Origin: Nitrospinota bacterium
GTDB taxonomy: Bacteria > Nitrospinota_A > UBA7883 > JACRGQ01
DNA: 64,000 nt
Direction of reading: 5' to 3'
NCBI GenBank assembly: GCA_029881495.1
Contig: JAOUMJ010000013.1
Span: 3,954-67,953, forward strand
Below are positions 3,346 through 51,172 of the stretch, in pieces. The notes under the pieces are model-generated. The model had not been told where the DNA came from and searched no databases. It was given only the letters and a program-made list of their open reading frames with translations. The first letter of the stretch is position 1; the number at the start of each line of letters is the position of its first letter. A program made the position numbers and the translations under genes.

Positions 3346-4434
3346 ATGTTTTCAGGTTTATATAGAGGCAAGCGTGTTTTTGTAACTGGGCATACAGGGT
3401 TTAAAGGTTCATGGCTTACTGCATGGCTATTAAATCTGGGTGCGGATGTCGGCGGATTTTCCATAGGTGTTCCAACAGAGCCTTCCAATTTCAAAGTTCT
3501 GGATTTGGAGAAGAGGATAACGCATTTCGCGGGAGATATCAGAGATAGAAAGTTGTTAGGCGATGCGATCGATAGCTTTAAGCCTGAAGCAATATTTCAT
3601 CTTGCCGCACAGCCGATTGTCAGGGAATCATTTGCTGATCCTGTAACAACATTTGAAACTAATGTTATGGGTACGATGAATGTTCTTGAATTGCTAAGAA
3701 CAAGGCCTTCAATTAAAGCTGGAATAATCATCACAAGTGATAAATGCTATAAAAATCTTGGCTGGACATGGGGATATAGGGAAAACGACACTCTTGGCGG
3801 GGGAGATCCATATAGTGCTTCAAAAGCCTGCGCCGAGCTGATATTTCACTCTTATTGTGAATCATTTTTGAAGATGGGGAGTACAAGAGTAGCGACTACG
3901 CGCGCTGGCAATGTAATTGGGGGTGGCGACTGGGCAGCAGACAGGATTGTACCTGATACGGTGAGAGCCTGGAGCAAAAAGAAATCAGTAACTGTACGGT
4001 ACCCAAAGGCTACTCGTCCTTGGCAACATGTCCTCGAACCGTTAGGCGGCTACCTTTGGCTTGGCGTAAAACTGCTGGAGGGCCAGGAAAATGTGAACTG
4101 TGAATCATTCAACTTTGGACCAATGGCTAGTGTTAACCAGCCTGTTGCTGCTCTTCTTGAAGAAATGAAAAAATATTGGTCAGTAGCTGAATGGGAAATT
4201 GAAAAAGTTGATGAATATCAGGAGGCTTCATTATTAAAGCTATCCTGCGATAAGGCTTTAAATGCGCTAGGGTGGGAAGCATCACTTTCATTTGCCGAGA
4301 CTGTCCGTATGACATGTGAATGGTATCAGGCGTATTATGAAAAAGGTGGTAAAGGAATTTACGATCTCACCATGGAGCAGATAAATAATTATGTAAGCAT
4401 TGCCTCGGACAAAGGGCTTGAATGGACAAAGTAA
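3346..4434 (+). CDS. rfbG: CDP-glucose 4,6-dehydratase
   Basis: VFVTGHTGFKGSWL is a Rossmann motif and YSASKA is the SDR catalytic YxxxK. The length and its position after rfbF fit RfbG/DdhB. Confidence 0.8.
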   Translation: MFSGLYRGKRVFVTGHTGFKGSWLTAWLLNLGADVGGFSIGVPTEPSNFKVLDLEKRITHFAGDIRDRKLLGDAIDSFKPEAIFHLAAQPIVRESFADPVTTFETNVMGTMNVLELLRTRPSIKAGIIITSDKCYKNLGWTWGYRENDTLGGGDPYSASKACAELIFHSYCESFLKMGSTRVATTRAGNVIGGGDWAADRIVPDTVRAWSKKKSVTVRYPKATRPWQHVLEPLGGYLWLGVKLLEGQENVNCESFNFGPMASVNQPVAALLEEMKKYWSVAEWEIEKVDEYQEASLLKLSCDKALNALGWEASLSFAETVRMTCEWYQAYYEKGGKGIYDLTMEQINNYVSIASDKGLEWTK

Positions 4435-4889
4435 CCGGGATGAACAAGAGCGGAATCGAAGGACTTCAAATAACACCCCTTAAGCAAATCGATGATGAAA
4501 GAGGCTCTGTGCTCCATATGTTGAGAAGCGATTCTGAGATTTATATAGGGTTTGGGGAGATATACTTTTCGTTTGTAAAGCAAGGGGTTGTGAAAGCCTG
4601 GAAACGGCATAAAGTGATGACTCAACATTTTGCAGTTCCTGTTGGGAGAATAAAACTTGTTCTATTCGATGACAGGAATGCAAGCAGTACAAAAGGAAAT
4701 ATAGAAATTATCGAGATAGGAAGACCGGACAAGTATGAACTCGTCAAAATCCCACCGCTTGTGTGGTATGGATTCAAGGGGATAGGCGAAGGGGAATCAA
4801 TGATAGCAAACTGTACTGATATTCCGCATGACCCTGAGGAAGTGGAACGATGCGACATTGATACCTCTGATATTTCTTATGCATGGTAA
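4422..4889 (+). CDS. RmlC-like cupin sugar epimerase/isomerase
   Basis: A small cupin whose pattern resembles dTDP-4-dehydrorhamnose 3,5-epimerase blocks (ERGSV ... KAWKRHK ... VPVGRIKLVLFDDR). Its start overlaps the rfbG stop, which suggests translational coupling. Confidence 0.5.
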   Translation: MDKVTGMNKSGIEGLQITPLKQIDDERGSVLHMLRSDSEIYIGFGEIYFSFVKQGVVKAWKRHKVMTQHFAVPVGRIKLVLFDDRNASSTKGNIEIIEIGRPDKYELVKIPPLVWYGFKGIGEGESMIANCTDIPHDPEEVERCDIDTSDISYAW

Positions 4890-5032
4890 GTAAAAACTCA
4901 TTTTTTCCAAATTACCTGGAACCACATGTTTTATTAAATGCATATGTATATGGGGATTAGATACATATTTTGTATTCATTTGATTAACTGTGCTATATGC
5001 ACAAAATGTATATAATTTAAAAGACGAAATAT

Positions 5033-6547
5033 ATGAGTATATTTAAGATCAGATTTTCAAGAATAATAATATTTGGCCTGTTAATTTTCTATGTTGTATG
5101 TGGATATATATATTTGAATGTTGAAAATGCGCATATAGTTGATACATATAGCATGGTATTGTTATTTATCATTATAGCGATACTGATTTTATTCCAAGTT
5201 GTCCCTAGCAAGTATGACAGGCCTCTTTTCCTTTTATTTTCAATATTCGTTTTCCAGAAGTACTGTTTGTCTATTTTATTTATGCTTTTGCTTCCAGAAT
5301 ATGGAAGGAAGGAAATGGTAGAGGCATATCAGGTATATGACTCTGCGCAATTTAATAGCATTCTTGTATATTGCATATTCGGAACAATATTGCTTGGGTT
5401 AGGAACAAAGATAGGCGGAAGCATCGCAAATAAAAAAGTATTTTATGAAAATATAAACTTTCTGGACAGGTTAATGCTGAAAATTAACCCGGCCGCAATA
5501 TTAATGATATTTCTTGTCTTGTCTTCGTATTCTTTATATTTGAACTACTATTATAGTATTGGAAGGCATTATTCTGCTTCTGTTGACACCGGATTAAACT
5601 TCCTCAATATATTCAAAAACACTTCGTGGATATTTTACATATCATTGGCTTACGTATCTTTCTTTTGGGGGATCTTAAAGAGATACCAAAAAAAAATTGT
5701 CATATTGACAATTGTATTAATAATAGCAAGTTCTATCGCACAAGGATCAAGGTCATATATTTACGTTTATTTTATTTTGGCAATTTTAATAAAAACTGTT
5801 ACGGGTGGTGACTTCAAGGTGGCATTTAAAAAAACCATATTTGCGATCTTGATTATAATCACCGCAATAACAAGTTATCCCATAGCTTTAGGTATTAGAA
5901 ATGCCGGAAGAGCGGAAAACTATTCAGTCGCAAATTTAGCAAAGCAGATTAAATATGCCTATTTTGCTAATGAAAATCCATATGGTGTTATGACAATGGA
6001 TATTATTTCTAGATTAACAATGATCGAACCGTCATTTAGAATATTAAACGATTTGGAAGTTAACAGCGTTGAAGATAATGTTACAGTAATCGGTGATATT
6101 AAAAGGATTATTAATGGAATGGTGCCAGGCGACTTATTTTCTGACGTTATATATCATACCAGACTATATGCATATGTATATCAAGGTAATTATATTCGAT
6201 ACAACACTGTTGAATGGGGATACTATGAATATTGCTATGCTCTTTTCGGTACTTTCGGTGGCCTGATATTTGTTTTGTTTATTTCGGCAGTGCTCGGTAG
6301 TATTTGGAAGCTCGCACTAATTAGGAATTATGGGTTTAAATCAATTTTGTTGGTATTTTTCATCATGATTTATTGGACAATGTTAAAAAACATGGGTATG
6401 TCATATGTAGTTGCAAATGCTGTTACCGAGATATTTGTATTCTTGTTTTACCTCCCGGTTGCATGGCTTTTATCGCAATTAATGGGCAAGTATTATCTAC
6501 GCAAAAAGTTATTAATTGTAAATAAAGAGAGAGTCGGACAATTTTGA
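5033..6547 (+). CDS. Polytopic membrane protein, probable O-unit polymerase (Wzy-like)
   Basis: A 504-aa, very hydrophobic, AT-rich ORF with about 10-12 predicted TM segments and one larger loop. It sits among glycosyltransferases. Confidence 0.45.
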   Translation: MSIFKIRFSRIIIFGLLIFYVVCGYIYLNVENAHIVDTYSMVLLFIIIAILILFQVVPSKYDRPLFLLFSIFVFQKYCLSILFMLLLPEYGRKEMVEAYQVYDSAQFNSILVYCIFGTILLGLGTKIGGSIANKKVFYENINFLDRLMLKINPAAILMIFLVLSSYSLYLNYYYSIGRHYSASVDTGLNFLNIFKNTSWIFYISLAYVSFFWGILKRYQKKIVILTIVLIIASSIAQGSRSYIYVYFILAILIKTVTGGDFKVAFKKTIFAILIIITAITSYPIALGIRNAGRAENYSVANLAKQIKYAYFANENPYGVMTMDIISRLTMIEPSFRILNDLEVNSVEDNVTVIGDIKRIINGMVPGDLFSDVIYHTRLYAYVYQGNYIRYNTVEWGYYEYCYALFGTFGGLIFVLFISAVLGSIWKLALIRNYGFKSILLVFFIMIYWTMLKNMGMSYVVANAVTEIFVFLFYLPVAWLLSQLMGKYYLRKKLLIVNKERVGQF

Positions 6548-6691
6548 AATGGAAAGTGATGTTCCAGCTAAGTTTGTTTGGAAATCCACAATCATTTAAA
6601 TATATTACTAATAATTAATTCGAACAAAATATATTTCCAGCATTAGATGTTTGTAAAAGTAGGTAGTCAGGCTAATTGATTATAGGAAACT

Positions 6692-7897
6692 ATGAAAAGT
6701 AATATATTCGCGGTTTTTGGATCAGTTTTTGCTGGGCTATTTGTTTTTATAATATCAACATATAACCTGCAAGATTTTAACTCGGAGGACATAGGGTTAG
6801 GAATAAATACCCAAAGTAAATCGGGCTATAGAGATAGCAGATTGATCTCCAGTAATGTGATGGAAGATGTGAACGAGATAGTAGATAATTTTAGATATTA
6901 CAAGAATAATAATAAATACCATACAGCGCTGCTGCTAGGTGCATCACAGCTACACGCGATTAATGCGTTGCAAGAAAGTGATCTGCTGGCTGTCGAAGTG
7001 GCAAATTCGAGAGCTTTTGAAAATTCAGATAGCCTTGTCTATTTTCAACTGTCTAAACCAAATGCAAATTTTCATGATGTGCTAGGGATGTACCTAGCCT
7101 TTACGCTGGAGAATAATGAACATCCGGATTATTTGGTTTTGCCATTTGTATACGATGACTTGAGAGAAACGGGAATGCAGAATGATGTTATTAAGCATTT
7201 GCCAAACAATATACAGGAGATATTGCCATTTGAATCCGAAGGGACTAATCAAATTATTTCCTTGGCAAACCTAGAAAATAATGCGGTTTCAATTGGAACT
7301 GACGATCCGGTTAAGGATATTACGATGAGTAACTCGCCTCAGGATGCAGTGGAAAAATATATTATTCGGTCCCTTGAGGGATTTTCAAAGTCGTATGAAA
7401 AACGCGGTAATTTGCAATCGTGGATTGAGTTTCAAATGAAATACTATTTCAGGAAAACAAAAATAGGAATTAAAAGGATCTACTTGGCTAGCACAAATAA
7501 ACATTATATGCCGATAGAACATATACAAGATAAGATCTCGCATTGGAATATAAAAGCCTTTATATCTTTATTGAAAATTACCAATTTTAACGGGGTAAAG
7601 GTATTTGTTTACCGTCAACCTCATAGGCCGGATAAGCCTGAGTATTTTATGCATAACAGGAAGGAGTATGATCGATACTTTGCTTACATCTCTGAATTAT
7701 GTATTGAAAATTGCCAGGTAATCGGTGATTTTGAATTGCTGGTTCCAAGTGAATACTATGGATTAAATATTGATGGTTTTCCAGATCCATTTCATTTCCA
7801 GGGGATTGGCCATAAGTTGCTTGGAGAGAAAATTCACACTTCCTTGAAAGCTCAAATTCAGCTTTCCTCAATAAATAGACACGTAGTATCTCGATGA
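6692..7897 (+). CDS. Membrane-anchored DltD/AlgJ-like (SGNH-like) protein, putative acyltransferase partner of the downstream MBOAT
   Basis: It has an N-terminal TM anchor, an LLLGASQL block and a C-terminal DPFHFQGIGHKLL block of D-x-x-H type. It lies immediately upstream of an MBOAT gene, as in dltD-dltB or algJ-algI arrangements. Confidence 0.4.
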   Translation: MKSNIFAVFGSVFAGLFVFIISTYNLQDFNSEDIGLGINTQSKSGYRDSRLISSNVMEDVNEIVDNFRYYKNNNKYHTALLLGASQLHAINALQESDLLAVEVANSRAFENSDSLVYFQLSKPNANFHDVLGMYLAFTLENNEHPDYLVLPFVYDDLRETGMQNDVIKHLPNNIQEILPFESEGTNQIISLANLENNAVSIGTDDPVKDITMSNSPQDAVEKYIIRSLEGFSKSYEKRGNLQSWIEFQMKYYFRKTKIGIKRIYLASTNKHYMPIEHIQDKISHWNIKAFISLLKITNFNGVKVFVYRQPHRPDKPEYFMHNRKEYDRYFAYISELCIENCQVIGDFELLVPSEYYGLNIDGFPDPFHFQGIGHKLLGEKIHTSLKAQIQLSSINRHVVSR

Positions 7898-7922
7898 TTT
7901 TATATAAGGGCGCTGCAAATTA

Positions 7923-9383
7923 ATGTTGTTTAACAGTATAACCTACATCCTGTTTTTATCGTTTGCAGTGTTTGCTTACTGGAATTTACCGTATAGATAT
8001 AGGATTACCTTTCTGTCCGGTATGAGCCTTTTGTTTTATTCCTTTTGGAGAGTAGAGTTTTGTCTATTAATTATATTTTCTGCAGGCGTAGATTTTATAG
8101 CGTCGCGAAAAATATATGGTTCTGAAGACGAAAGAAAAAGGAAGATTTATCTTGCAATAAGTCTTGTTACCAACCTAGGTCTGTTAGCAATATTTAAATA
8201 CACATACTTTGTATATGATAATATAAGCTTCATTGCAACTCAGGCAAATTATAGATTCCCTTCGTTTGATTCTATTGCGATTAAGATAATTTTGCCTCTA
8301 GGAATATCTTTTTATACTTTTCAAACTATTAGTTATACGATTGATGTCTTTCGGAAAATAGTGAAACCAATAGACAATTTTAATTTGTTTCTTGCTTATG
8401 TCATTTTTTGGCCGCAATTAATTGCAGGTCCTATCTTACGATTCGGTGAGGTAGTTCCTCAGCTTGTTGAAGAAAAGAAGTTTATGCCAGAATTGGCAAG
8501 TTCTGGAATTGTTTTAATTATTGTAGGGTTATTCAAAAAGGTAGTTTTGGCTGACAATTTAGCGATATTTGTTGACGCAGGTTTTGAAGCATCTGTATCT
8601 CAATTGAATGCTTTGGATATATGGTTGCTGTCTTTTATGTTTGGATTTCAAATATATTTTGATTTTTCAGCATATTCTGACATTGCTATAGGCTCTGCAA
8701 GACTTTTAGGTATATATTTTCCAGATAATTTCAACTGGCCCTATATGGCAGTATCACCAAAGGAGTTCTGGAATAGATGGCATATTTCACTTTCTTCATG
8801 GGTTCGTGATTATCTGTATCTGCCTATAATTGGAGAGAAATTTAGAACAGACAGTAAGGGCGGAATAGGAGAGGCGGCAGTATCAAAAAAAAGAGACAGA
8901 AATAAAGCTCTGTTTGTAACTTGGATGTTAATGGGATTGTGGCATGGAGCAAATTGGACATTTGTGCTATGGGGTATATATCATGCCGTCTTTATCTTTA
9001 TATACCGAGTGATCAAGATATTCAATTTTCTTGAACGGAAACTTCCGGTCATTTCGTGGTTATTTACTATTTTTGTAGTTATGGCAGGCTGGATTTTGTT
9101 TAGATCTGAAAATATTTCAGAATCAGCTGCCATGTATTCAATATTGCTAAATCCCAATAACTATTCGCTCAACGGGCGAATCTTTCCACTCCAGGATTAT
9201 TTCATGGTATTTGTGTTGATATCCACCATGGTTATCATGTATGAAATATGGAAGAAAAACATAAATAGATATTTTGATTCAATTGGTTGGGTTTTCACTA
9301 GATACGCGGCAATTGCTGTAATGATATTTTTTATTGCTGTCTATCTTAAGCCGGTTCAACAATTTATCTATTTTCAATTTTAA
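7923..9383 (+). CDS. MBOAT-family membrane-bound O-acyltransferase (AlgI/DltB-like)
   Basis: Multi-TM protein with the MBOAT hallmark WNRWHISLSSWVRDYLYLPI, which contains the conserved histidine. Confidence 0.8.
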   Translation: MLFNSITYILFLSFAVFAYWNLPYRYRITFLSGMSLLFYSFWRVEFCLLIIFSAGVDFIASRKIYGSEDERKRKIYLAISLVTNLGLLAIFKYTYFVYDNISFIATQANYRFPSFDSIAIKIILPLGISFYTFQTISYTIDVFRKIVKPIDNFNLFLAYVIFWPQLIAGPILRFGEVVPQLVEEKKFMPELASSGIVLIIVGLFKKVVLADNLAIFVDAGFEASVSQLNALDIWLLSFMFGFQIYFDFSAYSDIAIGSARLLGIYFPDNFNWPYMAVSPKEFWNRWHISLSSWVRDYLYLPIIGEKFRTDSKGGIGEAAVSKKRDRNKALFVTWMLMGLWHGANWTFVLWGIYHAVFIFIYRVIKIFNFLERKLPVISWLFTIFVVMAGWILFRSENISESAAMYSILLNPNNYSLNGRIFPLQDYFMVFVLISTMVIMYEIWKKNINRYFDSIGWVFTRYAAIAVMIFFIAVYLKPVQQFIYFQF

Positions 9384-43059: not shown

Positions 43060-44271
43060 TTACGTTGTGCTCAGGGCTTCCTTGGACCATTTCCTGAAAC
43101 CTTCGGCCAGCCCCATCATGAAGGTGAGCTGTGCCCACACAACCTCGGCGCCGAAATTGTATTCAAAGATACCCGCTATTGCGAGGTTAATGTAACAACC
43201 GAAAAGCCCTATGTATATCGCTCCGAGGTAGGGATTTCTTTCCTTTTCCTCCTTGAAAAGGGTCAGATACTTGCGCATGAAGTACACGAAGAGGAACAGC
43301 ATGATGAGGAGGCCGATCACCCCCCCTTCCGCAAGTTCCTGCAGGTAGAGGTTATGCGCGTGGGAAGGGTTGTGAATGATCCCCTCTGCCGAAAACTTCT
43401 TCAGGATAAAGGTTAACTGGTTGTATCCGACGCCGAAAAACGGGTTGTCCTTGAAGGTATCCCAGGCAATTTCCCAATATTTCAGCCGTGAGGCGAAATC
43501 CACCTCGAATATCCTCTCCATCCTGTTCCTGAAACCGGAAAAGGCAAAGAAATAAACTGCAAACAGGGTCGGGATAATCATTAAGGATGAGACGAAAAAT
43601 TTTCGTGATTTAAAGGGAGTTATCAGGATAACGGTGAGAGCGACGCTGAGGAAGTAGCTCCTCGATCCGGAATAAACCAGACCTGTCAGCAGGAGCGGGA
43701 GGTAATAGGCATACTCCTTTTTGTAAAAGATGGAGAGCGTCAGGCAGACCATGAATACAAGAGATATGTACCCCCCGTAATGGAGTGGATGCCCGAAATA
43801 CCCGATAAGCCTCTCTTCGAACATTTCAACCCAGAGCCTTTGGAAAATATACGGAGCGCCAAAATATTTCTGCAGGATCGCCCAGCATATAAGGAGGTTG
43901 TTGGTCATGAAGAGAGTATGAAGCGTCTTGTCGAGCACGTCCTTTGCAATAGAGAATCGTCCGATTAGTATGTACAGGAATTTATCCCATATTTCCCTTA
44001 TTTCAACGAAAAAGCTGAAGACGCCGTTTATCAGGACGGTAATCCCTTTCCAAGAGTAGACCAGGGCAAAAAGGGAGAAATCGACATCTATATTTTTCCA
44101 CTCTTTTGTCTTGTAGAGATCGTAAAGGAAGAGAATGGTGAAGATCGCGATTACCGCATTGATACCGGCTATGGAAATTGAGGATGTAAATGCTCCAAGG
44201 TAGAGGATATAGGGAATCACCCTCCCTAGATCAATTACCTTCAAGCGATTATCCATCGTAGTGTCATGCAT
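43060..44271 (-). CDS. O-antigen ligase (Wzy_C) family membrane protein (WaaL / O-oligosaccharyltransferase / EPS-ligase type)
   Basis: About 10-12 TM helices with one large periplasmic loop. The region containing NLYLQELAEGGVIGLLIMLF is typical of the Wzy_C domain. Confidence 0.6.
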   Translation of the reverse strand: MHDTTMDNRLKVIDLGRVIPYILYLGAFTSSISIAGINAVIAIFTILFLYDLYKTKEWKNIDVDFSLFALVYSWKGITVLINGVFSFFVEIREIWDKFLYILIGRFSIAKDVLDKTLHTLFMTNNLLICWAILQKYFGAPYIFQRLWVEMFEERLIGYFGHPLHYGGYISLVFMVCLTLSIFYKKEYAYYLPLLLTGLVYSGSRSYFLSVALTVILITPFKSRKFFVSSLMIIPTLFAVYFFAFSGFRNRMERIFEVDFASRLKYWEIAWDTFKDNPFFGVGYNQLTFILKKFSAEGIIHNPSHAHNLYLQELAEGGVIGLLIMLFLFVYFMRKYLTLFKEEKERNPYLGAIYIGLFGCYINLAIAGIFEYNFGAEVVWAQLTFMMGLAEGFRKWSKEALSTT

Positions 44272-46520: not shown

Positions 46521-48959
46521 ATGAAAGTTCCGTCGCAAAAGGAGCTTTTGAATTCGCCTCTTTTTGCGGTTGGTCTTATCTTCCTCGCAATAAACCTTAC
46601 TACCTCACATATCTTCTATGAAGTATCAGACTATAAAACTCTTCTAGCCCTTGCAGGCGCTGCTTTTCTGGTAGTCTGGTACGATATCATTCATAGAGAA
46701 AAAGATTCGGGTGAAGAGCCGTGGGAAATGTGGCTTATTCTATCGCTCCTCCCTTTGGCGACCATCCCGGGATACTTTGTCCAGGCAGGTCACTACAACT
46801 ACTTTCTGTTCATGGAGTTTTCCATAACCTTGGCTGTAATCGTCTATGCCGGATATATCTATAGAAATATAAAAGAAATGAATGATATCTCACCCCTTAT
46901 TTTCTTGATAGGGATAACTGTTATCTATGTGAGCCTTTGGGGGTTAATTGAGAATATTCTTGTCTCAAACGGCTTCGCCAGAATATTTTTTCAGAATAGA
47001 GTTCAATCAACATTCGGGAATCCAAATTATTTTGCCGGTTTCCTGAATCTGCTCTTGCCCATTTTCTTTGCCCTTTTTCTGGGATCGTTGTCATTGGCAA
47101 AAACGAATAACGTGCATATCAAACTCAAGTTTGATAGAAATAACGGCTTCTGGCTGGCTGTGCTCTTTTTTGGGTTGATGGGACTTTCCCTTACAGGCAC
47201 CAGAGCCGCTATCGCTGGTTGTTTCATCGGGATCATGTTCTCAGGGTTTCTTTATTCACTCTATGTTCTGGCAAAGCGGGAGCGTAGATCGGTATTTAAA
47301 ATCACATCGGTTGCTTTGATAGTGTTGGTTTTAACGGCAATCATCTTCTCGCTTATAGCAAATATAAATATAGAACATAACCGGTTCGCTAAATTGCTAA
47401 ATATTGAAACATGGACGCCTCGTTTGATTCCGTGGAAGGCGGCAGTCGATTCCATATCTGCCTCACCTTTATTCGGGTACGGGCTTGGTAGTTCTCATCA
47501 GCTTTACCAGGAGTTTGTTGATCCATCCGTAAGGATATATGTATCCTCCGTGGCATACGGCCATGTCCATTCCGAAATATTGGAATATATGCAGGAAGCG
47601 GGATTTTTTGGCTTGGTGACCTATCTTTTCGTATGGGGTTATATAATCGCAAAGCTTGTAAAGGTATTACGGTCATCAAAGCATAACGCCGGGGTGCGAA
47701 TATTGGCGATCGGGATATCTGGAGGATTCCTCGGCTATCACATACAAAGCCTTGCCTCTCTCGTGCCGCGGATGATGGTAGTAAAACTACCGCTGTTCAT
47801 GATGATCAGCATCGTCTTTACTCTAAAGAGGCTGTCAGTTAACGACGTCTCAAGGCAAAAAACAGCTGTTCAAACTGGCAAAAGTGCGGTTGCCCTGACT
47901 TCAATTGTTATGGTAACGGTTGCCTGTTTCACTTTTTTCCCCTGGGTTGTTACGCAATATCGTTATCAGGCAGCAATAGAAATGAGGTCGATCTCATCTC
48001 AAATCGAGGAATTGAGTAATTCGGTTGCCATAAAACCGGATATAAATTCACTGAACATGCTTGCGAAACTTCTTGTAGTAACCAGGGATGTGGAGAAGCT
48101 GGAAAAGACAGTGGCGATCATAGACCAGAGAGTTCCAGGCATGAGGAACTTGGGATTTATCAAGGCCTCCCTTGCTTTTATTGAAGGGGATCTTGAGAAA
48201 TCCAAACGTCTTGCGCTGGAATTTCAGGAAAAAGACAATTTCTTCGATCCAAGCATGGATTTGCTATTTCATCTGGCGGTTGATACAGGTGATGCCGACC
48301 TGTTTTATAGAGAGATGAATACCCTTGTAAGGAAGCATTTGCTGAAAAACAGATTGTTAGCTCCGCGTAGCCCGATACTTTTCAAAACTTCGGAGGGAGG
48401 TTATGCAAGCAGGGTTGTGTTTGAACAAAGCAGTGACGAGATGATAGTTATATGGGACAAGGCTTTTGTGGAAAGATTATTTCAGAAGGCAAGAAGGAAC
48501 TGGCTTGAAAAAATAGATGCCTCCCTGGAAAAGGAAGAGACTTTTGTTGAGTTATGGACATCGATTTCCGACAATGAATATTTCAAGCTGGCTGTTAAGG
48601 AGACTGCTGGTGAAAAAGAACTTGCAGTTATCAGGGAGGTTGAAGAAAGGTATTTTGAAAAAAATCGCGCGCGCGAACAAAAGCTGAAATATCTTGAGAT
48701 GGCTTTTGAAAATAGCATGAGCAATGGCAAAGACGACGATGAAGCATTTATCCGTGAGAAATACAGACAGGATATAAGAAAGGTAAATATCCAGTTTGCG
48801 GATGATCTGGAATCGTACGAAAAATATCTTTCAGAAAGAACTGATTGGCCTATCTACAAGGCCAAAGTTAAATTTATTAACAGTTTTGTGCTGGAACTTG
48901 TTGCGCATGTTCATATGGGGAGCAGTTTCTACCCAGTGGTTGGGTACACATCACCTTAA
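46521..48959 (+). CDS. Wzy_C (O-antigen ligase family) membrane domain fused to a ~400-aa C-terminal helical/TPR-like soluble domain
   Basis: The N-terminal ~450 aa are polytopic with a Wzy_C-like loop; the C-terminal half is hydrophilic and helix-rich. 812 aa in total. Confidence 0.55.
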   Translation: MKVPSQKELLNSPLFAVGLIFLAINLTTSHIFYEVSDYKTLLALAGAAFLVVWYDIIHREKDSGEEPWEMWLILSLLPLATIPGYFVQAGHYNYFLFMEFSITLAVIVYAGYIYRNIKEMNDISPLIFLIGITVIYVSLWGLIENILVSNGFARIFFQNRVQSTFGNPNYFAGFLNLLLPIFFALFLGSLSLAKTNNVHIKLKFDRNNGFWLAVLFFGLMGLSLTGTRAAIAGCFIGIMFSGFLYSLYVLAKRERRSVFKITSVALIVLVLTAIIFSLIANINIEHNRFAKLLNIETWTPRLIPWKAAVDSISASPLFGYGLGSSHQLYQEFVDPSVRIYVSSVAYGHVHSEILEYMQEAGFFGLVTYLFVWGYIIAKLVKVLRSSKHNAGVRILAIGISGGFLGYHIQSLASLVPRMMVVKLPLFMMISIVFTLKRLSVNDVSRQKTAVQTGKSAVALTSIVMVTVACFTFFPWVVTQYRYQAAIEMRSISSQIEELSNSVAIKPDINSLNMLAKLLVVTRDVEKLEKTVAIIDQRVPGMRNLGFIKASLAFIEGDLEKSKRLALEFQEKDNFFDPSMDLLFHLAVDTGDADLFYREMNTLVRKHLLKNRLLAPRSPILFKTSEGGYASRVVFEQSSDEMIVIWDKAFVERLFQKARRNWLEKIDASLEKEETFVELWTSISDNEYFKLAVKETAGEKELAVIREVEERYFEKNRAREQKLKYLEMAFENSMSNGKDDDEAFIREKYRQDIRKVNIQFADDLESYEKYLSERTDWPIYKAKVKFINSFVLELVAHVHMGSSFYPVVGYTSP

Positions 48960-49159
48960 TGCTTGTCAGGAAATACGGTTGCCTTGTATTTATTCACCAG
49001 TTGTCAGAATTATCACTTGAAAATATGATTACCTTGTGGTAGCATCACCACGTCGTAAATAAAGCGGGATGCATACGATATTTACCTAAATATTGTTTGC
49101 GCCTGCATTGCAAAAAGCCGGGCAACGTCGAGGTTATTGAAATATCTGGGGAGGTATCT

Positions 49160-49732
49160 ATGGACTGGAAGGAAATCGGTAAATCGCTTGTTTCGCAGGG
49201 TGTTCCGTTGCTAGGAGGCATACTTGGAGGGCCTGCCGGCGCTGTCGCAGGAAAGATGGTCGCGGGCATTTTCGATTCAAACCCGAGCAATCCCGAGGAA
49301 CTGTTGAACGCGATACAATCTGATCCCGAAGCAATCACAAAACTGCGAGAATTTGAAATGACGCACAAACAGAAACTGCAGGAACTTCAGCTTGAGGAGA
49401 CGAAGGCATTTTTAGCGGATATGGATTCGGCGCGTTCACGTGAAGTCGCTCTCGCAAAAGCGACCGGCAAGGGGAACAATCATCTTTATGTGATGGCATA
49501 TATTGTCCTTGGAAGTTTTTTTGGCATAGCTGGGTATCTTTTTTACAAAGTCATCTTTATTAGCAGTGATCCATCGATTGACAAGGGGGTTATGGAGAAG
49601 CTGAACAACAATCCCATATTAATGATTATTATAGGCGCGCTAATATCCGGCTTCACGCAGGTGCTATCATATTTCTTTGGAAGCTCGAAAGGTTCATCGG
49701 ATAAAAACTCTATGATGCAGTCAAAAGGCTAG
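49160..49732 (+). CDS. Holin-like protein (3-TM holin for gene-transfer release, GTA-holin-like architecture)
   Basis: Gly-rich N-terminus (LLGGILGGPAGAVAGKMVAG), a conserved-looking EETKAFLADMDSARSRE block and two or three C-terminal TM segments. Strong GGGGAGG RBS. The ORF-track start at 49097 is an upstream extension. Confidence 0.45.
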   Translation: MDWKEIGKSLVSQGVPLLGGILGGPAGAVAGKMVAGIFDSNPSNPEELLNAIQSDPEAITKLREFEMTHKQKLQELQLEETKAFLADMDSARSREVALAKATGKGNNHLYVMAYIVLGSFFGIAGYLFYKVIFISSDPSIDKGVMEKLNNNPILMIIIGALISGFTQVLSYFFGSSKGSSDKNSMMQSKG

Positions 49733-49741
49733 ACACGCCCA

Positions 49742-51079
49742 ATGATAGCCGAAGGAAGCGTAAGCGTTTCCAGCCTGAATATGAGGTTTTCTCCGGGAGG
49801 GCCGGTTATCAAACTCCTCCCGCTTGGTACGGAGCTGGAAATACTGGCGCGGGAGGGTTCATGGTTTTACGTTCGGGCAAGCGGGCTCACAGGCTTTGTC
49901 GGTTCGAAGTATATCAATGTAAAGCGGCAGGAGAATAAACAGCCTGACACCCATGTTGAGGTTGTTAAACGTTCTGGAAACGTAAATATAGATCTCCTGA
50001 ATATGAGGATGAGTCCGGGCGGGGAGATAATCTCAAGGCTTCCGAGAAATACCACTGTAAACATCCTTGAGGATGAGGGGAGCTGGCTGAAGGTGCAGGC
50101 GAATGGACTCACCGGTTACGTTACAGAGGAATATATTACTCTTGAAAAACTTACCACACTCCCTCCGCCACAGAAGAAGGAGGATGTAGCCGGTTTCAAA
50201 TACGAGGACGAAAGGGCTTACGCTCCGGATGGCACCAAATTCGGCAAGAAATACAAGCTTGGTATATATAATGCCGGTTCCACCTCAATTGCGGAATTTA
50301 TCCAGAAAAACAAGTCGAGGTTCAAAAATATCTCACAATCTCTACTGAACGTCATGAAAGCGGTTTCCGAAAATGAGGGGAAATTCGAGTCGATTAATAC
50401 ATGGGACAACTGTTTTCTTTCCGCCGGCGTTTTCCAGTGGACCACCGGGCCAGGAAGTGAAGCTGGTGAGCTTGCAGCCGTACTTGAAAAACTCAAAGAA
50501 AGGTTTCCCGACTCATATGAAAAATATTTTGGCAGGTACGGGCTTGTTCCGGAAGGGGTGCGGTACAGGGAAGGGGCCACACCAGTAGGATATTTCAAAA
50601 TTGGCGGGGTGCTACTTGGAGATTCAACACAGAAAAATACCTTGCGTTCGCTTCCGTGGGCATACCGTTTTTGGCTGGCGGGGCATGACGACGATATGCG
50701 TGAGATACAGACACTCCATGCCGCCAGCAGAATTGATCTGTTTTACAAGCAGGATAAAAAGAAAATCGGGGAATTCCATGTATGCGATTACATAACTTCA
50801 GAATACGGCGTTGCCTTGTTGCTAGACCAGCATGTAAACAGGCCGGGACATGTCCCTCGCATTTTGGGTGACGCGGTAAATGAGTTGTCCGGCAAACTTG
50901 ATATAAAAAATCCGCAAAAATGGAAAGACGATGATGAGAGAATGTTGATAGAAAAATACCTGGAACTCCGCACCAAGACGAGCATGACACATCCGACACA
51001 TCGTGCGGAAACTGTTTTCAAACAGGTAAAAGCTGGGGTCATCTCCGACAAAAGGGGTACGTTCAAACTTTCTGTATAA
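49742..51079 (+). CDS. Two-SH3b-domain cell-wall hydrolase-like protein (putative endolysin, lytic-transglycosylase-like C-domain)
   Basis: Two bacterial SH3-like repeats (LNMRFSPGG...GSWFYVRASGLTGFV and LNMRMSPGG...GSWLKVQANGLTGYV). The C-terminal domain has an E-N-E-G ... SAGVFQWT pattern reminiscent of the GH23 E-S ... GLMQ signature. It lies immediately after the holin-like gene. Confidence 0.5.
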   Translation: MIAEGSVSVSSLNMRFSPGGPVIKLLPLGTELEILAREGSWFYVRASGLTGFVGSKYINVKRQENKQPDTHVEVVKRSGNVNIDLLNMRMSPGGEIISRLPRNTTVNILEDEGSWLKVQANGLTGYVTEEYITLEKLTTLPPPQKKEDVAGFKYEDERAYAPDGTKFGKKYKLGIYNAGSTSIAEFIQKNKSRFKNISQSLLNVMKAVSENEGKFESINTWDNCFLSAGVFQWTTGPGSEAGELAAVLEKLKERFPDSYEKYFGRYGLVPEGVRYREGATPVGYFKIGGVLLGDSTQKNTLRSLPWAYRFWLAGHDDDMREIQTLHAASRIDLFYKQDKKKIGEFHVCDYITSEYGVALLLDQHVNRPGHVPRILGDAVNELSGKLDIKNPQKWKDDDERMLIEKYLELRTKTSMTHPTHRAETVFKQVKAGVISDKRGTFKLSV

Positions 51080-51172
51080 CGCTGTTCCTGTACAGCATCG
51101 TTTTCGCAATTCTGCCTCGATGAGGTATTCTTTAAGTGAGTATAACGTTTAGCTGAAACAAGGTATTTTACC

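Follow-up and report, generated by a model that had tools for sequence, protein, structure and literature searches.

Holin-endolysin gene pairs that have escaped from phages are emerging as devices for secretion and altruistic lysis, with type 10 secretion and GTA release as examples. Those known so far were described in a few cultured pathogens and in Rhodobacterales. Three groups of described systems are relevant to the locus presented here. Vibrio phage ICP1 encodes the holin TeaA (gp137), which collapses the proton motive force and brings about dinitrophenol-triggered lysis (PMC7182436); TeaA works with the antiholin ArrA. The family PF11351 (GTA_holin_3TM, formerly DUF3154) is named after the Rhodobacter capsulatus GTA (RcGTA) holin rcc00556, which is partnered by the endolysin rcc00555. 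Finally, the type 10 secretion systems, which include Serratia ChiWXYZ, the Salmonella TtsA and chitinase systems and the Yersinia entomophaga lysis cassette, consist of phage-derived holin and peptidoglycan-hydrolase genes that reside on the chromosome under host control.

Here we describe two adjacent genes, A and B, in a 64-kb stretch of DNA from a Nitrospinota bacterium (the window). On balance, we consider it probable that this pair is a domesticated, self-contained chromosomal holin-endolysin cassette.

The gene pair and its surroundings

ORF A and ORF B are co-directional, with 9 intergenic nt between the end of ORF A at 49732 and the start of ORF B at 49742 (Table 1), in agreement with the two tightly spaced, same-strand ORFs of the preliminary description. 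The ATG at 49160, with a GGAGG upstream, is favoured as the start of ORF A. A longer version from a TTG at 49097 is possible, without support. The last codons of A contain an AAAGG that resembles a Shine-Dalgarno (SD) sequence, and such an element lies within the end of A, 6–18 nt 5' of the B start, in 7/7 loci that carry the pair, which suggests translational coupling of A and B. The pair is probably transcribed as one bicistronic unit. Since the upstream promoter-like site is a consensus match only, and shuffles of the region upstream of ORF A hold more such sites than the region itself, it lends weak support to a promoter at this position.

Pfam annotation of the window covered most of its large ORFs, outside ~19.4–21.6 kb and up to ~61 kb, and several of these had no match. 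Every match obtained was cellular: no phage-related family appeared among the annotated ORFs, no capsid, tail, terminase or integrase gene was found near the pair, and no GTA gene was found across the 64 kb. The earlier statement that this stretch has no capsid, tail, terminase or integrase genes holds for the annotated ORFs. A mobile-element origin of the pair was rejected, as the pair has neither flanking direct or inverted repeats nor a GC anomaly. Assignment to a defence system was also rejected, given that neither the pair nor the gene on each side of it matched a PADLOC model.

Table 1. Features of the A–B locus, in window positions.
Feature	Position	Strand	Description
Promoter-like site TTGTCA-17-TATGAT	49001..49029	+	10/12 consensus match, in the 200-nt gap downstream of a Wzy_C gene
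Shine-Dalgarno GGAGG	49150..49154	+	5 nt 5' of the ORF A ATG, read from sequence
ORF A	49160..49732	+	190 aa, TeaA-family (phrog_1544) holin by profile match, distant PF11351 relative
A residues 14-37, glycine-zipper segment (GVPLLGGILGGPAGAVAGKMVAGI)	49199..49270	+	common to PF11351 proteins; possible first membrane segment
A residues 107-136, first strong transmembrane helix	49478..49567	+	hydropathy and AlphaFold helix 107-136
A residues 152-173, second strong transmembrane helix	49613..49678	+	hydropathy, AlphaFold
A residues 171-182, YFFGSSKGSSDK	49670..49705	+	near-invariant C-terminal motif of the TeaA/phrog_1544 branch (family alignment)
SD-like AAAGG in last ORF A codons (AAAGGCTAG)	49721..49732	+	precedes the ORF B start
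ORF B	49742..51079	+	445 aa, signal-less, 2xSH3b and predicted lysozyme-superfamily hydrolase, endolysin-like
SH3b domain 1, B residues ~6-60	49757..49921	+	SH3_3 match
SH3b domain 2, B residues ~78-133	49973..50140	+	SH3_3 match, DNA repeat
Catalytic domain, B residues 137-445	50150..51076	+	chitosanase/VgrG3-like lysozyme fold (model), no sequence-family match
Glu212 codon	50375..50377	+	candidate general acid, invariant, C-terminal end of helix 199-211
Asp222 codon	50405..50407	+	candidate second catalytic acid, invariant, beta-hairpin after Glu212
Two terminator-like hairpins	51081..51127 (51081-51096, 51113-51127)	+	directly 3' of ORF B, consensus match only

Family relationships and domains of the two proteins

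Profile evidence places A in a holin family, within the TeaA / GTA_holin_3TM lineage. In a PHROGs profile search it matched phrog_1544 with an E-value of 2.2e-28, and residues 1-187 of A aligned with positions 1-193 of the 200-position profile. TeaA of ICP1 falls in the same family (E 4.6e-54). Direct comparison by tblastn gave 27% identity to TeaA (E 3e-4), with the N-terminal 33 residues outside the alignment, while hhalign of the A-family alignment against TeaA reached 98.5% probability (E 3.6e-15) and included the FFGSxKGSxDK motif, which reads FFGSTKGSKDK in TeaA. The link to PF11351 was reached via an intermediate phage protein and profile-profile comparison, in which the A family aligned with 15 PF11351-annotated proteins over A residues 1 to ~133 only (hhalign 99.9%, E 1e-31). 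These profile comparisons join ICP1 TeaA, the PF11351 'GTA holin' family and the cellular A clade in one lineage.

The preliminary description had assigned A the architecture of three-transmembrane (3-TM) GTA-release holins. Its holin-family part stands through phrog_1544, TeaA and the PF11351 proteins, but the Pfam PF11351 HMM itself matched neither A (E up to 1), nor 48 family members (E up to 0.1), nor TeaA (E up to 10), and none of the curated holin models scored A. The topology is clear for two transmembrane helices. In segment 14-37, hydrophobicity is weak, and AlphaFold builds this segment as two short helices forming a helical hairpin; given the two strong helices and this weaker segment, three transmembrane segments are plausible but not certain. 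By its family relationships, A is predicted to form holes in the membrane.

Protein B gave two SH3_3 matches in Pfam (E 3e-19), and an internal DNA repeat (49774-49810 / 49996-50032) lies within its ORF, bearing out the two SH3b repeats previously proposed for this 445-aa protein. B has no signal peptide, transmembrane segment or hydrophobic N-terminus, and secretion signals are absent in all 120 of its closest family members. Searches of Pfam, NCBIfam and the PDB, with the single sequence and with a profile, found no sequence match for the catalytic domain and recovered the SH3 domains only; PHROGs gave one match, confined to the SH3 region. The model of this C-terminal domain (pLDDT 95.9) adopts a lysozyme-superfamily fold, whose nearest counterparts are GH46/GH80 chitosanases and the Vibrio cholerae peptidoglycan hydrolase VgrG3. 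The likeness to GH46/GH80 is at the fold level only, with no sequence-family membership in Pfam or the PDB, and a Foldseek search of the domain against the PDB found nothing.

A pattern resembling that of lytic transglycosylases, E...S/AG...Q, had also been noted in this domain. The pattern is present (E212 ... S227-A228-G229 ... Q232), and E212, G229 and Q232 do not vary among 60 homologs, but B neither matches the SLT (GH23) family profile nor has SLT as its closest fold. By analogy with Glu11 of T4 lysozyme and Glu22 of GH46, Glu212 is the candidate general acid, and Asp222 may serve as the second catalytic acid. In other proteins, the B catalytic domain is fused to LysM or PG_binding_1 in place of SH3_3, and its family comprises ~780 cluster representatives. 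Taken with the holin partner, these peptidoglycan-binding fusions argue for peptidoglycan as the substrate. Because the closest folds are chitosanases and the domain is assigned by fold only, another amino-sugar polymer could in principle be the substrate. With its SH3b modules, lack of a signal and modelled lysozyme-superfamily fold, B looks like an endolysin and is predicted to cleave peptidoglycan. We also considered an elongasome context, with PBP2 and RodA as multi-TM neighbours of longer B-family members, and rejected it, as Pfam assigned these genes to PASTA/FecR and to NrfD/ActD of alternative complex III, or left them without a known family.

Recurrence of the pair and its possible functions

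The A–B pair recurs in seven distinct loci, distributed over Nitrospinota, Gamma- and Deltaproteobacteria, Flavobacteriales and Methylococcales. Both ORFs are intact in all seven, with a gap of 6-18 nt between them. A and B are under purifying selection (dN 0.17-0.32 for A and 0.41-0.59 for B, with dS saturated), and the GC content of the pair follows that of each host. No phage genes lie within ~10 kb on either side in the six other contexts. Since the pair is conserved in unrelated lineages without phage genes within this distance, it looks host-owned. The earlier proposal of a stand-alone lysis-type cassette is supported: A matches a holin family, B has a cell-wall-hydrolase-type fold, and the two recur as an intact pair on chromosomes away from phage genes. 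The seven contexts share no third gene beside the pair, and neither a spanin nor any other gene for outer-membrane disruption is conserved there. In diderm hosts such as these, the absence of a spanin fits non-lytic export as well as lysis. A shared regulator was rejected, given that no upstream motif is common to the seven loci. Nor could the pair be connected with a cargo, a regulator or genes for a particle. Approximately 70 of 80 B-family genome loci have no A-type holin alongside, indicating that the B enzyme family does not generally depend on one.

The A family is abundant in viruses, with at least 510 IMG/VR relatives (retrieved with the C-terminal motif) and 174 phage records. On 80 viral contigs, A homologs lie directly beside endolysin genes of diverse catalytic classes, namely GH108, CHAP, Phage_lysozyme, M15, amidases and the PHROG endolysin families 894, 28234 and 315. 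In Aeromonas phages 4_D05 and KLEA5, Alteromonas phage P24 and Burkholderia phage Maja, the A homolog lies beside a lysozyme or in a spanin/endolysin region. Viral homologs share at most 45% identity with A in one search and at most 41% among the IMG/VR relatives; members of the cellular A clade share at least 52% and are always followed by B. The B catalytic domain was found in three phage records and one BFVD match, and pattern scans of IMG/VR returned no relatives; the B catalytic family is essentially cellular. An apparent phage copy of the A-to-B arrangement was rejected because its B-like ORF matches via the SH3 domain only.

[quoted passage not shown] Lacking a secretion signal, B would be made in the cytoplasm, cross the membrane through these holes and dock on peptidoglycan via its two SH3b domains, whereupon its lysozyme-superfamily domain would cut glycan strands using the predicted catalytic residues Glu212 and Asp222. 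We infer that the most likely outcome would be lysis, or at least cell-wall breaching, of the producer, probably in a subpopulation.

The same lack of a conserved spanin can be read in favour of a non-lytic use, in which the holin would pass B, and perhaps other signal-less proteins, across the inner membrane without killing the cell. B would then either make a local opening in the sacculus through which cargo passes, or be secreted to attack neighbouring bacteria, similar to type 10 secretion or to the holin-dependent release of SH3b muralytic bacteriocins. The literature documents both secretion systems built from a holin and a peptidoglycan hydrolase and SH3b bacteriocins linked to holins (PMC9527704; PMC10847048, PMC10109510), the closest peptidoglycan-active fold match of B, VgrG3, is an interbacterial toxin, and degradative enzymes (Peptidase_S8, penicillin amidase, patatin) adjoin the pair in some loci. 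However, none of these neighbours is conserved across the pair loci, the patatins are lipoproteins whose own signal peptides mean that they need no holin, no immunity-like gene is conserved, and the nearest relative of A to have been tested, TeaA, causes lysis by itself (PMC7182436). We regard a non-lytic use as credible but unlikely. Improbable, in our judgement, is that the pair serves to release a GTA, a tailocin or another particle whose genes lie elsewhere in the genome. This arrangement has a precedent in R. capsulatus, where the rcc00555-rcc00556 lysis locus lies apart from the structural genes with housekeeping genes on both sides (PMC5026251), and A is a distant homolog of the family named after the RcGTA holin. 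Yet A has its nearer relative in the phage holin TeaA and is more distant from PF11351 proteins, the gene order is opposite to that of RcGTA (holin first here), the pair is present in phyla without a known GTA, and particle genes were found neither in the 64-kb window nor within ~10 kb in the six other contexts.

Decaying prophages often leave lysis cassettes, and the abundance of the A family in viruses would suit an inert remnant of this kind with no present function. The conservation data make such a remnant very improbable: both ORFs are intact, with spacing and coupling kept in 7/7 loci, dN is low against saturated dS, and GC is matched to each host. Additionally, the cellular A clade is separate from viral sequences in its identity to A, and viruses almost entirely lack the B catalytic domain. 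The source annotation in GenBank names A a 'chloride channel protein', which would make it an ordinary membrane transporter and a chance neighbour of B, itself a housekeeping autolysin. A has a weak Voltage_CLC match of 22.6 bits, under the Pfam cut-off of 24.8 bits, that covers 72 residues of transmembrane helix against a 346-position model and is found in 1/48 family members only. Given this sub-threshold match to a transmembrane helix only, holin-family evidence that is orders of magnitude stronger, and the conserved pairing of A and B, we rejected the name and consider the transporter explanation extremely improbable.

Returning to the holin-endolysin cassette, a wider formulation can be put forward tentatively, as a possibility that we would not rate as probable. 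A and B may constitute an old, host-owned, phage-independent module, spread across phyla, for controlled self-lysis or holin-gated export, in which a domesticated holin of the TeaA/GTA lineage is translationally coupled to an undescribed family of lysozyme-superfamily enzymes. If so, the module could release DNA, vesicles, public goods or new particles in environmental bacteria such as Nitrospinota, and the holin-less B-family members in many other lineages may use other unconventional export routes. The clade is conserved, and selection maintains it in uncultured members of several phyla, among them Nitrospinota, a phylum of marine nitrite oxidisers. The pair is thereby a specific candidate, ready for cloning, for lysis or export under host control in organisms of this kind. 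B also defines a predicted lysozyme-superfamily catalytic domain that is without sequence matches in Pfam, NCBIfam or the PDB and could represent a new class of muralytic enzyme.

Comparison with described holins and hydrolases

Like A, TeaA belongs to phrog_1544 and combines a helical linker and two transmembrane helices with the FFGSxKGSxDK motif at the C terminus, and members of its family usually lie beside endolysin genes. Unlike A, TeaA is phage-borne and paired with ArrA, and no ArrA-like gene adjoins A, which belongs to a separate, purely cellular clade with ~27% identity to TeaA. PF11351 proteins share the N-terminal glycine zipper and the helical region with A, and their first transmembrane helix is homologous. 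The C-terminal third differs, with WRPFxGF...ASWFRGK in PF11351 proteins and YFFGSSKGSxDK in A. At the level of gene organization, rcc00555-rcc00556 resembles A–B as a stand-alone chromosomal holin/endolysin locus flanked by cellular genes (PMC5026251), although the gene order is reversed and no GTA genes were seen near A–B.

Type 10 systems share the general composition of A–B but use different holin and enzyme families. They adjoin cargo and usually regulators, some also with spanins, whereas none of these is conserved beside A–B; a linked signal-less cargo, by which type 10 systems are recognized, was not found, as no neighbour is conserved among the seven contexts.

For the modelled catalytic domain of B, the closest folds are the C-terminal hydrolase of VgrG3 (PDB 4NOO, 4NSO) and GH46/GH80 chitosanases (1QGI, 7C6D, 4OLT, 5B4S). 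In B, an invariant Glu at a helix end is followed by an invariant Asp in a beta-hairpin. Identity is 10-17%, without a sequence-level match, and Foldseek misses the likeness. B differs from VgrG3 in that it has SH3b domains and a holin partner and carries no attached T6SS spike and no apparent immunity gene. With canonical SH3b phage endolysins, B shares a predicted cytoplasmic location, the lack of a signal, a modular combination of binding domains with a muralytic domain, predicted in the case of B, and an adjacent holin gene; it is set apart from them by its N-terminal binding domains, its C-terminal catalytic domain and a catalytic family that is essentially cellular.

Layout and genomic setting of the pair

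Two co-directional ORFs, 9 nt apart, lie on the plus strand at the site given in the preliminary description, which a model made from sequence alone. The promoter-like site upstream of ORF A and the hairpins that follow ORF B would fit an independent bicistronic unit.

Features of the pair and its surroundings in the window
Feature	Position	Strand	Description
Polysaccharide biosynthesis cluster	1-22 kb		Large, O-antigen or EPS type (Pfam)
Second Wzy_C gene	43060-44271	minus	
Wzy_C protein gene	46521-48959		812 aa; immediately upstream of ORF A
Promoter-like site	49001-49029	+	Within 200-nt gap 3' of preceding gene; consensus match only
ORF A	49160-49732	+	190 aa; preferred start ATG at 49160, GGAGG five bases upstream
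ORF B	49742-51079	+	445 aa
Two terminator-like hairpins	Directly 3' of ORF B	+	Consensus match only

Pfam annotation, from recorded gene calls or direct scans, covered most, not all, large ORFs of the window, and several ORFs matched no family. The polysaccharide cluster, which has low GC (0.34-0.39) across about 4-16 kb, encodes a DegT aminotransferase, an NTP transferase, an epimerase, a dTDP-sugar isomerase, an MBOAT protein, several glycosyltransferases and methyltransferases, a GDSL lipase, DUF362 and CapK-like genes. It is followed by genes for an E1 dehydrogenase, RNase G, FlgG, flagellin, YhdP/AsmA, a SPOR protein, LepA, LepB and KsgA and, nearer the pair, a beta-propeller protein, a Wzy_C protein, a radical-SAM/SPASM enzyme and an RRM protein. 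The product of the gene adjoining ORF A has 11 transmembrane segments, a Wzy_C (O-antigen ligase/polymerase) domain and a soluble C-terminal extension of ~350 aa; this neighbor is not conserved at other loci that carry the pair. Downstream of ORF B lie pirin, ComFB, NhaA, cupin, PAS-GGDEF-EAL, methyltransferase, NDH-2, hemerythrin, PhoU and ABC ATPase genes. The window has a single RNA gene, for tRNA-Met, at 24.5 kb. Among the Pfam-annotated ORFs there is no phage, GTA, tailocin or integrase family, in agreement with the earlier claim that the 64 kb contain no capsid, tail, terminase or integrase genes. The pair shows no GC anomaly, and no flanking repeats were found.

Holin-family features of ORF A

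Curated libraries, including the HMM of PF11351 (Pfam GTA_holin_3TM), gave no above-threshold match for A. In PHROGs, A matches phrog_1544 over its full length (E 2e-28). The same family contains TeaA, the holin of Vibrio phage ICP1 and the closest characterized relative of A; relatives of A occur in 174 of 50,697 phage records searched by tblastn, among them every ICP1 isolate, whose copies are annotated as teaA, holin. TeaA aligns with the A-family profile at 98.5% probability, with a C-terminal FFGSxKGSxDK motif inside the alignment. Expressed alone, TeaA dissipates the proton motive force and gives dinitrophenol-triggered lysis, and its authors linked it to PF11351 through remote homology (PMC7182436). 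Consistent with that link, comparison of the A-family profile with that of PF11351-annotated proteins gave 99.9% probability (E 1e-31). The alignment spans the glycine zipper, the extended helical linker and transmembrane helix 1; over the C-terminal third the two families differ. A is thus distantly related to PF11351, yet falls below that family's own HMM threshold.

Viral gene neighborhoods point the same way. Burkholderia phage Maja carries an A homolog in its spanin/endolysin region, and among the relatives of this protein are at least 15 with a PF11351 annotation, the source of the profile compared above, as well as a member of the cellular A clade. The A homologs of Aeromonas phages 4_D05 and KLEA5 and of Alteromonas phage P24 directly adjoin a gene for a lysozyme or lytic transglycosylase. 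Across 80 IMG/VR contigs, the genes directly next to the A homolog frequently encode peptidoglycan hydrolases, which range over many unrelated types (GH108, CHAP, Phage_lysozyme, M15, amidases, and PHROG endolysin families 894, 28234 and 315). Since a constant small membrane protein with changing adjacent enzymes is a holin signature, these comparisons support the assignment of A as a holin-family protein. The holin call in the preliminary description therefore stands through phrog_1544, TeaA and profile comparison with PF11351 proteins, although the PF11351 HMM itself gave no score.

The proposed three-transmembrane architecture is plausible. Two strong transmembrane helices lie at about residues 107-136 and 152-173, preceded by a 45-residue helix (residues 58-102), whereas the N-terminal glycine-zipper segment is only a possible third membrane span. 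Judging by the basic C-terminal tail, the C-terminus would face inward. The public GenBank name of A, 'chloride channel protein', is almost certainly a mis-annotation: its Voltage_CLC match is sub-threshold (22.6 bits against a 24.8-bit cut-off) and covers 72 residues, the transmembrane helix only.

Domains and catalytic family of ORF B

B has two SH3b domains, as first described, at residues of about 6-60 and 78-133, and neither a signal peptide nor a transmembrane segment. Residues 137-445 matched nothing in Pfam, NCBIfam or PDB sequences, including by profile search of the latter, and the PHROGs match is confined to the SH3 region. An AlphaFold model of these residues, built with 60 homologs, reached a pLDDT of 95.9. 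Foldseek found nothing for it in the PDB; a viral structure library returned one true relative, and the hits that came after it were weak, to a viral chitosanase, a 'VgrG-like protein/endolysin' and a PlyB-like endolysin. By fold, B is a lysozyme-superfamily member close to the chitosanases and VgrG3, and it fits no described sequence family.

Invariant Glu212 lies at a helix end, and invariant Asp222 follows ten residues on in a beta-hairpin, an arrangement resembling the paired Glu and Asp of T4 lysozyme and of GH46 enzymes. Because of this layout, we suggest that B is an inverting hydrolase and not a single-acid lytic transglycosylase. Further invariant residues are G229, Q232 and W233; E212, G229 and Q232 of the E...S/AG...Q pattern noted earlier are therefore retained, whereas its reading as lytic-transglycosylase-like is not favored. 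In other proteins the catalytic domain is fused to one SH3b domain, LysM or PG_binding_1, which supports peptidoglycan as the substrate.

The family is rather small, with 779 representatives (E up to 1e-3) among 1.84 billion, and is almost wholly cellular, with three phage records and no relatives of the domain in IMG/VR by pattern scan. A crude 10-residue hydropathy test of the 120 closest members revealed no credible signal peptide; the one protein flagged (P0022) has an internal hydrophobic stretch only. B thus resembles an endolysin, and its catalytic domain represents an undescribed family.

Conservation and possible function of the pair

A search with the B domain, taking one genome per species, yielded 80 loci in many phyla. 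At these loci, an A-family HMM found a partner only in the subclade of two-SH3, 440-460-aa B proteins, always directly upstream of B with a gap of 6-18 nt. About 70 of the 80 loci have no adjoining A-type holin; their products are peptidoglycan-binding, lysozyme-fold proteins. Together with metagenome look-ups, the genome search gave seven distinct pair loci: the window (Nitrospinota), L001 (Gammaproteobacteria), L003 (on a contig >0.5 Mb), L010/L171 (Deltaproteobacteria), L016 (Flavobacteriales), L018 (Methylococcales, 2-Mb contig) and L172. About 44 A protein clusters are at least 52% identical to the window protein, and many of these lie on contigs whose lengths match those of contigs with B homologs. 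At all pair loci A terminates with the codons AAAGGxTAR, which puts a Shine-Dalgarno-like element ahead of B and points to translational coupling. The loci share no upstream motif and no third gene, neighbors vary at each, and PADLOC gave no match.

Several loci depart from this arrangement or carry additional genes. Two members of the two-SH3 subclade (L012, 9566-10885; L013, 2523-3875) have no upstream A homolog, indicating that B proteins of this type can lose their holin or have it replaced; in L013, B is followed after 40 nt by a gene for a DUF454 protein of 127 aa that has three transmembrane segments. In L003 (3698-5304) and L171 (11549-13160), a 72-75-aa protein and a lipoprotein patatin-like phospholipase (460-466 aa) are encoded beside the pair. 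These units, absent from the window, belong to unrelated lineages, are 43% and 32% identical and lie on opposite sides of the pair; they might represent an accessory membrane-attacking partner, or coincidence. DUF4332 proteins a few genes away (L001, 12912-13338; JGI 3300075153 contig, genes 774-1712), once with HHH_5 and once with PASTA, may well be there by chance. In four Saprospiraceae loci (L072, L075, L078, L080), the gene for a 517-553-aa B-family protein precedes a co-directional gene for a 1154-1203-aa protein; in L072 (B-family gene 3659-5260, next gene 5315-8776) the latter protein has caspase (Peptidase_C14), DUF7379 and alpha/beta-hydrolase regions. This arrangement could be a cell-death or defense-type module with a peptidoglycan hydrolase.

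The anatomy of the pair fits a holin-endolysin cassette point for point, in keeping with the lysis-type cassette originally proposed. Given that a holin-family protein appears coupled to a cytoplasmic, peptidoglycan-binding enzyme of lysozyme fold, we consider it moderately likely that A would gate the access of B to the cell wall. Lysis of a subpopulation would be the default outcome for the cell, since the nearest tested holin, TeaA, is lytic by itself. The main rival is non-lytic export, as in type 10 secretion, which would accord with the lack of a conserved spanin beside the pair at any of its loci, with the likeness between B and an interbacterial toxin, and with published cases of SH3b bacteriocins linked to holins. 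The pair could also be a release module for a GTA or tailocin encoded remotely, for which the Rhodobacter capsulatus gene transfer agent (RcGTA) is a precedent, but the available flanks lend this no support.

Chance adjacency of a transporter to B is unlikely for a pair that recurs in this order. A dead prophage remnant is unlikely as well: synonymous sites are saturated among the pair loci, dN is low (0.17-0.32 for A, 0.41-0.59 for B) and GC tracks the host from 0.41 to 0.54, indicating purifying selection on both genes and long residence in their hosts, as opposed to recent prophage debris. Holins usually diverge fast. At the seven pair loci A is instead better conserved than B (62-78% against 42-54% pairwise identity), which may reflect some constraint on A in addition to merely forming holes.

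A holin with a muralytic enzyme is a known kind of system, and the principle is itself unsurprising. What is new is the form, a cellular, cross-phylum two-gene clade without a spanin or linked cargo and with an undescribed catalytic family. Judged from sequence, the pair is a solid, testable candidate for such a system and adds a putative new enzyme family.
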